Of a DNA stretch of 53,773 nt, positions 1 to 2,069 are shown in pieces; the stretch's first letter is position 1, and every line of letters begins with the position of its first letter. The stretch is from NCBI GenBank assembly GCA_913020725.1, contig CAJWCD010000006.1, positions 1-53,773 of the forward strand, written 5' to 3'. Source of the stretch: an uncultured Pseudomonadota bacterium (GTDB lineage: Bacteria; SAR324; NAC60-12). The notes beneath the pieces were generated by a model. It worked only from the letters and a program-made list of their open reading frames with translations. It had not been told where the DNA came from and made no database searches. The position numbers were made by a program, and so were the translations under genes.

Positions 1-143
1 GTCCATTTACGAACTCTTCTTTAGAAAGGTGATGTTTGAATCACTCGTTTCCTATGAGTGCGGGTGTGCAAGTCCCTAAACTTCAGACAAGTTTCTATTT
101 CTTCAGGTTACTGATGGGTCCTTCTCCTTTTTCTTTTTCCAAT

Positions 144-1859
144 TCACAAGAACTTCTTCCAATCTACTTTCAGTCTCATAAAGTCAATTCCCTCGTATTT
201 GAGTTTTGAGATTCCATCCTGATAGAGAATCTTTGGTCCAAAACCTCCCTTGAAATAAACGGTGGTGGATAATGTTTTTTGTTTGTGTCCGTCCAACCCA
301 TTCACGATCTCTTCACGAACTCCGTTCTGTAGAAGGTTCGTAATGAAGGTGTGTCTCAAGGAATGGAAGACCTTGTTTTGGGTTTCGTGAATCTGTAATT
401 TGTTGAGATACGAACTGTTGAACCACCTCCCAACATTTCTACCATACCCGTCTCTGGTCTTCTTCAACTCCCAAAATACTCTGTCCTTGTTTCTCTTTTT
501 CAAGAACTCTACATAATCAACGAAACCCAGTTTTTTCAGTGTCGGGTGAATTGGGACAATACGGACACTCTGGATGTTCTTGGTTTTCGTCTCACCAGTG
601 TTGTCAATCTTTATCACGTCACACTTCCCGTCCTCATAGACATCCTCAACCCTCAACTGACAGATTTCATCAAGTCTCATCCCCGTGAATAAACCTATCA
701 GTGGAACCCAGTAGTAGGGTAATTTGATCGTTTTCATTCTGTCATTGATTGTTGATCTCAAATAATTGTCAGGAGAGAAAATCGTTTGTAGTTCCGTTGT
801 GGTGAAATGATCTCTTGGAGTCTCCACCTTTGTAATTGAAATAGTCAGTCCCTCAAAATAGTTTTCCGGGACAAAATCACCATAATTGTTTCTCAACCAC
901 TTGAAGAATATTCTTACCCTGTAAATCAATTTGTTGAGATTCTTGGGTTCCTGTCCTTGAATACCCTTCATCTCAAGAATCTCAAGAATGGTCTTCCCCC
1001 TGTACCTTTTATCCTGTGTTCTGTGTTTTGGTAATCGTTGAATGACCCTCTTGAACTCCCTTCCGTGATCGTGGGAAACCAGTTCAATAGGAAGATCACC
1101 AATGATCTCAATAAGGTCGTTGATTGTTGATCTCAACTCCCTTGTTGATTTTGGACTTCTTCCGGACAACAACCGTTCTTCAAGGAAATCATCCCTAACT
1201 TGGGAGAGTTTTGGTGAAGTGACGTTCTTGTCCCTCTTCCCCGTCACCTCCGGAACTTCCGGACTTTCCTTGAAAACCTCTTCAGTCTCGTCAAACAACT
1301 CATCAACGAAATTGAGGTCTGGTTTCCTCTCCCCCAACAGGATTCCCCTTTTCCTCTTGATCGTCTGGTTCTTGATCCCTATGAGGTTTTCACGGAGTGT
1401 TCTAAACTGGATTGAGTTTCTATCAACCTCATAACCGTGACTGGACAGGAGTTTTTCCACTTCGTCATCAAAGTCCTTCTTCTCTCTGTTCTTCAGTCCG
1501 GTTTGTTCCATATCAAGGGTTTCAAGTCCTCTCTCAATATTCTTCCGGTCACTCCGGTCAATCCCAATATACGAGTAGTAGTTGGAATGTCTCTTGGACT
1601 TCTCTACCTCCTGTCTCAATATCCCCTTGATGTCTTCAACTGTGAGGGACTTCAGTTTTCCCATACGAACCTCCTGATAGATGGACTGGACAAGAAAATT
1701 GAGATGGTGGGACAACCTGACACTTTCCCTACGAATACCATTTCCAAGGGAAAGTGTGAAGTGTGACCGACCCTCAAAGACCGTCACCAAGTCCCTTGGA
1801 ACGACAGAACGGAAGAAATAGGACTGGTTCGGGGATTTCCGTAGAATGTGGTGGGACAT
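144..1859 (-). CDS. Site-specific tyrosine recombinase/integrase with an N-terminal DUF6538-like arm-binding region; alanine-free
   Basis: N-terminal YFFRSVVPRDL motif; catalytic motifs TGMRLDEICQL, TKTK, FHSLRHTF, LDGH, TTVY; adjacent to a tRNA. Confidence 0.93.
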   Translation of the reverse strand: MSHHILRKSPNQSYFFRSVVPRDLVTVFEGRSHFTLSLGNGIRRESVRLSHHLNFLVQSIYQEVRMGKLKSLTVEDIKGILRQEVEKSKRHSNYYSYIGIDRSDRKNIERGLETLDMEQTGLKNREKKDFDDEVEKLLSSHGYEVDRNSIQFRTLRENLIGIKNQTIKRKRGILLGERKPDLNFVDELFDETEEVFKESPEVPEVTGKRDKNVTSPKLSQVRDDFLEERLLSGRSPKSTRELRSTINDLIEIIGDLPIELVSHDHGREFKRVIQRLPKHRTQDKRYRGKTILEILEMKGIQGQEPKNLNKLIYRVRIFFKWLRNNYGDFVPENYFEGLTISITKVETPRDHFTTTELQTIFSPDNYLRSTINDRMKTIKLPYYWVPLIGLFTGMRLDEICQLRVEDVYEDGKCDVIKIDNTGETKTKNIQSVRIVPIHPTLKKLGFVDYVEFLKKRNKDRVFWELKKTRDGYGRNVGRWFNSSYLNKLQIHETQNKVFHSLRHTFITNLLQNGVREEIVNGLDGHKQKTLSTTVYFKGGFGPKILYQDGISKLKYEGIDFMRLKVDWKKFL

Positions 1860-1876
1860 AGAACCTCTTGGGATGA

Positions 1877-1900
1877 AAAAGTGTTCCCAAAAGTGTTCCC
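1877..1900. repeat. Tandem 12-bp direct repeat AAAAGTGTTCCC x2, a probable integrase arm-type binding site
   Basis: Perfect tandem copies at 1877-1888 and 1889-1900, between the integrase start and the tRNA 3' end. Confidence 0.6.
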
Positions 1901-1979
1901 TTGGTTGGAAAATCCCACCAACAACGTGGAAATTATGAAACTATAACACCAATAAAATCAGTATATTACAGTCATACCC

Positions 1980-2069
1980 TGGCGGAGAGAGAGGGATTCG
2001 AACCCCCGGTGACGTTGCCGCCACAATAGATTTCGAGTCTACCGCCTTCGACCACTCGGCCATCTCTCC
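1980..2069 (-). tRNA. tRNA-Ser(CGA), 90 nt, long variable arm, encoded CCA
   Basis: Reverse complement: GGAGAGATGGCCGAGTGGTCGAAGGCGGTAGACTCGAAATCTATTGTGGCGGCAACGTCACCGGGGGTTCGAATCCCTCTCTCTCCGCCA. Acceptor stem GGAGAGA/TCTCTCC, anticodon CGA, GTTCGAATC T-loop. Confidence 0.96.

Follow-up and report, generated by a model that had tools for sequence, protein, structure and literature searches.

Graded, strand-resolved loss of GC[C/T] in tRNA-integrated elements of SAR324 bacteria, up to GpC-free DNA and alanine-free proteins

Avoidance of a target site by mobile DNA is already known. Phages and plasmids under restriction-site avoidance purge motifs or palindromes, and where an enzyme has to find both orientations in order to cut, the loss of a single one already protects; phage T7 reportedly has its EcoP15 sites in one orientation only. 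Phage T4 combines hmC-marked DNA of its own with EndoII and EndoIV, which nick unmarked host DNA so that breaks arise from nicks in two strands, and it replaces all of its C before replication. Tycheposons and PICI-like elements bring together a tyrosine integrase at a tRNA gene, a small replication module and variable cargo.

The excerpts of published work used here describe phage C5-methyltransferases (C5-MTs) specific for GpC[C/T], GpC[C/T/G] or GpCN, whose mark is then oxidised and decorated (PMC8256090), and they rank RGCY first among the methylated motifs of marine viral MAGs (PMC8919816). The role of GpC modification in ocean phages was left open there, with a GpC-specific endonuclease kept possible, and whether the phage marks reach host DNA was left undecided (10.1101/2023.12.21.572611). 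No partner nuclease is named in the available parts of the papers on these C5-MT/TET/glycosyltransferase clusters (PMC8256090; 10.1101/2023.12.21.572611). In chloroviruses, R.CviJI/CviJI* (RGCY/GC) and M.CviPI show that a virus can encode a nuclease whose core RGCY specificity loosens to GC (PMC3681635, PMC8256090, in the parts cited).

Here we describe elements of SAR324 bacteria that resemble each of these systems in part. In comparison with restriction-site avoidance, the target is only 2-3 bp long, the purge is absolute, an amino acid is lost, the choice of strand is free, and a cognate restriction-modification (R-M) system of the host was not found in genomes G000 and G035 (86-93% complete). 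The elements share with the GpC-modifying phages the motif series, the ocean viromes and the hierarchy seen in Melnitz-type phages; however, according to the excerpts cited (PMC8256090; 10.1101/2023.12.21.572611), those phages keep and modify GpC, whereas the SAR324 elements are without such a cluster and delete the site. CviJI differs in belonging to algal viruses, and a symmetric cutter cannot give one-strand states. Unlike the T4 mark, the one proposed below would be post-replicative and GCY-limited, with a hypothetical nuclease. The likeness to tycheposons and PICI-like elements does not extend to packaging genes, an att pair or particle evidence, the SAR324 elements being known from incomplete copies. 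The element reported in PMC11876622 is a different SAR324 element, and the available part of that paper does not contain the word "dinucleotide". Our literature search, whose coverage mostly excluded subscription papers, returned no description of GpC-null or alanine-free elements or of strand-specific GCY loss. What is new is therefore the graded, strand-resolved series, target avoidance itself being known, its one-orientation case included.

A GpC-free tract at a tRNA-Ser gene

The window, the whole stretch of 53,773 nucleotides that was analysed, is the start of contig C6 of genome G000, and its host genes group with proteins that bear the name 'SAR324 cluster bacterium'. Base counting placed GpC at positions 60, 68 and then 1982, with 84.6 copies expected between 70 and 1981 at 42.5% G+C (Poisson P ~2e-37), which bore out a first-pass annotation that had read the same absence by eye against a rough expectation of 70-90. 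The second-longest gap without GpC in the window was 89 bp, and all full 1-kb bins from 2001 onward had observed/expected (o/e) GpC ratios of 0.88-1.27, as that annotation had stated for the host part. CpG, which it had called common in the tract, was below normal (o/e 0.59). The features of this region are collected in Table 1; both residual GpC of the island belong to the class that is best tolerated across all related elements.

Table 1. Features at the start of the window
Feature	Position	Strand	Remarks
GpC-null tract, probable tRNA-proximal end of an integrated element	70..1981		Remainder beyond the contig start
DUF6538-type tyrosine integrase, 571 aa, zero Ala	144..1859	-	ORF and Pfam
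Non-coding, GpC-free DNA between tRNA 3' end and integrase start	1860..1979		Part of 905 non-coding bp
tRNA-Ser(CGA), presumed integration site	1980..2069	-	Adjoins the tract
The island's only two GpC: TGCG (59-62), TGCA (67-70)	59..70		Both YGCR
Degenerate copy (88%) of RBS and start of a 65-aa cassette gene	102..141	-	Intact gene in the C4 GpC-null island

The integrase without alanine was confirmed. It matched the Pfam family Phage_integrase with an E value of 1e-11, DUF6538 falling just below the cut-off, and R395, K427, H499, R502, H525 and Y535 were invariant across 22 aligned homologues, in agreement with the claim that the catalytic residues are intact. The codons AGC, TGC, CGC and GGC were all absent from the gene and no codon junction read G|C. 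The alanine-free shadow ORFs that had been put forward as additional evidence are a trivial consequence of the absence of GpC. The 905 bp of non-coding DNA to which 1860-1979 belongs had no GpC against 37 expected.

At least half of the words of 1-1979 were present in 13 of the 23 sequencing runs listed, and contigs from two large metagenomes tiled most of 193-2009 with few differences; a contig from one small run equalled 135-2600 without a difference and may be the window's own source. Since the sequence occurs in many independent marine metagenomes, it is real and not the assembly artefact that had been named as a possible objection. The read variants listed numbered 23 in 232-1965, four at 111-118 being left out as paralogue reads; only one of them would create GpC alone (3.35 expected), and it was cancelled by a neighbouring variant on the same contig. 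RNA datasets held a 0.07-0.16 share of the tract words. Around the two residual GpC no RNA structure was found (z 0.86), and a promoter and terminator scan gave chance level.

Judged by its sequence, the tract forms the integrase-bearing end of a mobile element that SAR324 bacteria carry integrated at a tRNA gene. The second att copy to which the first-pass annotation had pointed was not recovered: the G000 assembly held no second copy of the 14 bases at the tRNA-Ser 3' end, neither G000 nor four relatives held an exact duplicate of 14-18 bases, and the window contig ends at base 1. No excision joint was seen in metagenome reads or contigs matching the element.

Distribution of the purge and its strand-resolved states

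Three long GpC-free tracts were present in G000 (C4:56630-61192, C6:69-1981 and C19:1-1418), all at contig ends, the next-longest such stretch being 355 bp, and the six alanine-free ORFs among the 3031 called all lay inside them. The C4 island, at tRNA-Ala(GGC), encodes an alanine-free integrase 46% identical to that of the window, together with a sigma-70 region-4 protein, small genes and a 434-aa protein; the C19 tract encodes an SBBP propeller protein. In genome G035, a 17.5-kb island at tRNA-Ala, consisting mostly of MORN-repeat cassettes, had 15 GpC against 523 expected. Other GpC-null segments thus exist, and these tracts support the proposal that the constraint takes in the cargo of the whole element. 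Of the 28 low-GC segments in G000, 25 had an overall GpC o/e of 0.81-1.27, which shows that the purge does not extend to acquired DNA at large; in this genome the purge is limited to tRNA-anchored islands.

Integrase homologues were found in 15 of the 64 genomes of the order, in one family only, next to the 3' ends of tRNA-Ser, Ala, Pro, Leu or SeC genes or tmRNA, several elements sitting in tRNA-Ala(GGC). Alanine was absent from 23 of the 120 homologues listed, and 86 of the 120 had six. In a FastTree phylogeny with one outgroup and partly weak deep nodes, 17 of the 59 integrase genes had zero GpC (several being near-identical) and formed two separate clades; a clade with an o/e of about 0.25 was nested within one of them, and GpC can therefore be regained. 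The 23 gene clusters selected as null had no GpC against 476 expected, about 300 of the expected copies lying outside alanine codons. Null proteins persisted across 22-28% DNA divergence. Diverged null pairs had 382-536 differences, with 30-37 GpC-creating changes expected and none seen, counts that attest persistence only since the pairs were chosen as null. In the 434-aa protein, nine positions that are alanine in most of 12 homologues have lost it and carry S, S, S, V, V, G, T, C and E instead. The best Foldseek matches of its model (pLDDT 59) were family-A polymerases, none of them significant (best E 0.08), and we refer to it as PolA-like.

Flanking classes of GpC were then counted element by element, with a codon-aware null for integrase genes; the figures that follow are observed/expected counts. 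In a first state only RGCY was lost (L018 0/25, L019 0/9), the other GpC classes of L018 being near normal; the remnant island on contig C12 of G000 had 6/40 RGCY. In a second state GCY was cleared from one strand, either the coding strand (L014, 0/20 vs 25/37 on the template; L027, 1/18 vs 26/35) or the template strand (L034, 2/24 vs 28/23 on the coding strand; L047, 0/18 vs 17/15; L028, 7/27 vs 13/18). In a third state GCY was off both strands with YGCR at expectation (L030 6/6, L035 11/7, L100 7/7, L102 8/6), as was also the case for L116, where YGCR was intact. The window and its kin represent the fourth state, in which all GpC is lost and hence the proteins are without any alanine. In the elements of G050, G052 and G033 the cleared physical strand stayed the same whichever way the genes faced, and it did so in non-coding DNA as well, although with small counts (2/12 vs 7/12, 2/13 vs 7/11 and 0/6 vs 5/10 for the cleared and the other strand); the non-coding DNA in this analysis gave 0/10 vs 7/9, again small counts. 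Three integrases of SAR324 genus g11 (L015, L021, L025) had normal GpC, as did distant metagenome relatives.

Other palindromes were also under-used in the null elements (CATG 25/82, GATC 44/114, ACGT 8/35, CTAG 16/48, GTAC 25/63), at 0.23-0.39 in null genes vs 0.82-1.0 in host controls, a pattern that DNA nucleases usually leave in the sequences exposed to them.

Two earlier conclusions of our own were dropped. A pooled analysis had pointed to a strand-symmetric cause, but counts for each element traced the symmetry to the mixing of elements in which different strands were cleared. The view that genera g9 and g11 were unaffected was wrong; most of their elements were without RGCY or had lost GCY from one strand.

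Read together, the four states, extending up to the loss of all GpC, very probably reflect a constraint on the DNA that is read per strand. The cleared template strands and the clean non-coding DNA exclude RNA and codon causes and uphold the view that the DNA, rather than the protein, is constrained. The first-pass annotation had proposed the purging of a 2-bp palindrome; the loss of GpC stands, but the pattern of flanking bases identifies the core target as the asymmetric trinucleotide GC[C/T] on each strand, with total GpC loss as the end of the series.

Host, phage and cargo factors

The avoided motif GC[C/T] equals the published phage methylation motif GpC[C/T]. For the host genomes a handful of nuclease families was searched, in assemblies 93% (G000) and 86% (G035) complete. 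C5-methyltransferase (PF00145) was absent from both; N4/N6-methyltransferase (PF01555) was below cut-off in five of five genomes; SRA, Mrr and HNH_2 were absent from G000, G035 and G021; and MqsR was present in none of the 45 genomes of the family, G000 and G035 included. Among the families tried, the GCY reader is therefore not a recognisable host system. TET occurred in one of 88 genomes of the phylum, inside an EcoO109I-type R-M locus. The C5-MT and TET of contig C93 of G050 had been considered as a GpC factor and were set aside, because they adjoin the EcoO109I-type endonuclease of that single genome and belong to an ordinary R-M locus.

The element-encoded GpC nuclease that had been suggested as a cause found no backing, no recurring nuclease or methyltransferase being recognised in 200 cargo ORFs from incomplete elements. 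The scanned cargo proteins of the same incomplete elements included no capsid, terminase, capsid-redirection or packaging gene. They did include an HUH rolling-circle Rep (Rep_1) in two relative elements, a T4-like primase fragment in SAR324 element cargo and, in the purged element of G033, a TagI-like SRA-HNH enzyme (E 2e-51 to PDB 6ghs) whose SRA domain was the only one across 64 genomes. The elements are putative phage satellites.

A genome-collection scan with the integrase returned one locus, a truncated integrase copy, and a search of IMG/VR with the integrase alignment gave only seven loci, all distant and GpC-normal. IMG/VR gave no match to the PolA-like protein, its alignment, the 65-aa cassette or the MORN leader pattern, a single 15-residue match to the primase fragment that was set aside, no close relative of the element sequences, and no match in a SAR324 TET scan. 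No phage of SAR324 came out of these searches, and the families and cargo searched yielded no GCY nuclease.

In the cultured T4-like phage Melnitz, genes for a C5-MT, a TET protein and a P-loop kinase lie beside PolB, and the phage genome had an RGCY o/e of 0.30, compared to 0.93 and 1.14 in two TET phages without such a methyltransferase. In 80 of 178 viral loci with the Melnitz methyltransferase, 65 of the 80 also having TET, the median o/e values were 0.44 for RGCY, 0.74 for RGCR/YGCY and 1.26 for YGCR, that is, for two, one and no GCY half-sites, in a near multiplicative fashion. Melnitz-type phages thus show a milder form of the same class hierarchy. We infer the specificity of the Melnitz methyltransferase from composition alone, and the phage is best taken as an analogy and not as a helper; it infects other hosts. 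The part of the Melnitz paper available mentions just a protective methylase (PMC9004378). A stand-alone GIY-YIG gene after nrdB had no match to the solved T4 EndoII, and its type was present in 807 phage records of many kinds; it is a weak candidate for the GCY nuclease.

Candidate mechanisms and their meaning

Selection in this element family seems to have worked over a long time against GC[C/T] (GCY) as a DNA motif. The agent would be an endonuclease that nicks unmodified GCY, a lethal double-strand break needing targets on both strands. RGCY, where both strands are targeted at a single place, would be lost first; an element would next profit from clearing either strand, and total loss would follow from relaxed activity at GCR. 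Most simply the agent would be a nickase, the only kind that accounts for the RGCY-only state as well as for the free choice between strands. Its source may be T4-like marine phages that methylate and hypermodify their own GCY through C5-MT and TET and degrade unmarked host DNA, on the pattern of hmC and EndoII in T4. An element excising, replicating and leaving an infected cell would start unmarked and would survive only without the motif; avoidance would be of no use to the host chromosome or to acquired genes that are not mobile, since the cell dies anyway.

That the phage pairs its own GCY mark with this nickase in order to degrade host DNA, and that the elements escape from the nickase, is a reading we hold tentatively, as just short of an even call. 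It is favoured by the phage C5-MT motif series GpC[C/T], GpC[C/T/G] and GpCN, which mirrors the element states (PMC8256090, in the part cited), by the restriction of the purge to tRNA-anchored islands, and by the Rep, or the PolA-like protein and T4-like primase fragment, carried by relatives. Against it stand the three normal g11 integrases and the fact that no GCY nuclease, SAR324 phage, packaging gene, second att copy or excision joint was found where searched. Of the causes listed by the first-pass annotation, escape from a helper-phage or host enzyme is the best fit.

The same chemistry under the opposite owner would be a host- or element-encoded anti-phage GCY nickase that hits foreign or replicating DNA, or all DNA on infection, phages replying by GCY methylation or by clearing early genes and elements by clearing. 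It fits the four states equally well and would explain why phages mark exactly GpC (10.1101/2023.12.21.572611, in the part cited), but it appears unlikely, if still a serious contender: neither G000 nor G035 holds a protecting methyltransferase, most other low-GC segments are normal, the cargo ORFs hold no recurring nuclease, and three marine Deltaproteobacteria MAGs, whose SAR324 identity is a guess, were without methylated motifs in the portion of the survey cited (PMC8919816). Avoidance of the mark rather than of the missing mark, in which a helper's C5-MT and TET would modify element GCY and nucleases dependent on 5mC or 5hmC, or a replication block, would destroy the element in the same or the next host, needs no new enzyme. 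The TagI-like enzyme of the G033 element speaks for it, as do the tighter binding of TagI to fully methylated than to hemimethylated DNA (PMC6212794) and the undecided reach of phage marks into host DNA, each in the part of the source cited. We consider it rather less probable still, because that enzyme comes from a single element, the domains concerned were absent from the three host genomes searched, fully methylated G5mC was modelled as unsuited to two-domain TagI binding (PMC6212794, in the part cited), and the protective sugar or kinase steps of the helper ought to reach the element as well.

The remaining alternatives are weaker. An ssDNA-specific GCY nuclease or modifier acting only on the strand that is exposed during transfer or replication of the elements in single-stranded form, with both strands becoming clean through cassette inversion, would suit the rolling-circle Rep of two elements and the one-strand states; it is improbable, since it cannot give the RGCY-only state (L018, C12) and the cleared strand in G033 is the template of rep, which in rolling-circle replication is not the strand usually displaced. 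Mutational erosion by repeated GpC methylation and 5mC deamination, with no selection on the site, is the probable cause of the incomplete depletion seen in Melnitz-type phages, and GCY is a known methylation target (PMC8256090, in the part cited). Deamination predicts an excess of GT/AC that was not seen (o/e 0.90 in null genes vs 0.83 in controls), which argues against it; instead GA/TC (1.43 vs 1.07) and GG/CC (1.36 vs 1.09) rose, just three of the nine conserved alanine positions of the 434-aa protein carry Val or Thr, and zero GpC in the 23 null-selected clusters needs extreme rates. We regard erosion as very improbable for the elements, and the exposure to a methyltransferase or deaminase named in the first-pass annotation falls with it. 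An RNA or translational cause, such as a GC-cutting RNase like MqsR or the loss of tRNA-Ala, has in its favour that every alanine codon starts with GC and that several elements sit in tRNA-Ala(GGC); it is contradicted by purges of the template strand only, by clean non-coding DNA, by the missing GpC outside alanine codons and by the lack of MqsR in the family, and its probability is negligible.

With the phage-derived nickase as the preferred reading, a fuller account is possible, though we would not call it probable: abundant T4-like ocean phages would run a 3-base self/non-self system in which their own GC[C/T] is methylated and decorated and that of others is nicked, and SAR324 elements would have escaped it stepwise, tracking a widening phage specificity and ending in functional 19-amino-acid proteomes. 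The elements would then be a natural read-out of the enzyme that opposes phage modification, which would act at GC[C/T], per strand, with both strands needed, and their graded, strand-resolved series yields a testable prediction about the enzyme on the other side. A recombinase of about 600 residues, a polymerase-like protein and propeller proteins that persist without alanine amount to a natural experiment in amino-acid-alphabet reduction. Counting GCY strand by strand is an inexpensive way to find elements and phages that take part in this conflict, and a nickase with a 2-3-base target would be a useful reagent. If this account is true, the GpC modification clusters of phages would gain a function, and a new nicking enzyme with a 2-3-base target is predicted.

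GpC-null and degraded islands in the genome holding the window, and an integrase remnant in another genome

The island on contig C4 contains several small genes as well as those for an Ala-free integrase, a protein with sigma-70 region 4 and a PolA-like protein of 434 aa; the last was assigned to no Pfam or PHROG family. The propeller gene on C19, which is GpC-null and has 49% G+C, is probably cargo from one of the islands. At C12, only RGCY was depleted (observed/expected 6/40), and an integrase remnant was found together with a YgjP peptidase and a transporter common to another element. 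The integrase copy in genome G063 ends after residue 327, where it is fused to host-like DNA, and GpC is still absent from this remnant.

Features (G, genome, G000 holding the window; C, contig; L, locus, with positions within it)
Feature	Position	Site
Second GpC-null island	G000:C4:56630-61192 (= L006:6669-11193)	tRNA-Ala(GGC)
SBBP beta-propeller gene, GpC-null	G000:C19:1-1418 (L007:112-1425)	start of contig
Degraded island	G000:C12:1-4250 (L008)	tRNA-SeC
Truncated window-type integrase	L010:9824-10930 (G063:C109)	
Small protein, weak HEPN-like matches	L105:2183-2722; L093:5296-5716	
Conserved 110-aa gene	L039:17739-18077 and 10 similar ORFs in 8 loci	
MORN-repeat protein array, 17.5 kb	G035:C3 about 140050-157580 (L036:2050-19580)	
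TagI-like SRA-HNH 5mC-dependent nuclease	L047:5413-6294 (G033:C28)	tRNA-Ala island
Phage Melnitz	MZ577097 (L221-L223)	
EcoO109I-type endonuclease, C5-methyltransferase and TET/JBP dioxygenase	G050:C93 (L214, L067)	one bacterial locus

Cargo genes

Apart from MORN genes, the 110-aa gene was the most frequent cargo, often lying directly after the integrase; neither it nor its similar ORFs were assigned to a family. The small protein with weak HEPN-like matches immediately follows the integrase in three elements. In G035, the array encodes secreted MORN-repeat proteins whose leader and intergenic unit recur in a cassette-like manner. Outside the array, the chromosome also has MORN genes that are poor in GpC, lying singly at dispersed positions.

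Modification and nuclease genes

The island with the TagI-like nuclease also bears an HUH rolling-circle Rep. In the cultured T4-like phage Melnitz, a TET and a kinase, both unannotated, follow the methylase gene; RGCY observed/expected was 0.30, and GATC (0.04) and CGCG (0.02) were nearly absent. Among 88 genomes of the phylum, TET was detected only in G050, at the locus of a restriction-modification system, which may oxidise the methyl mark that it makes itself.
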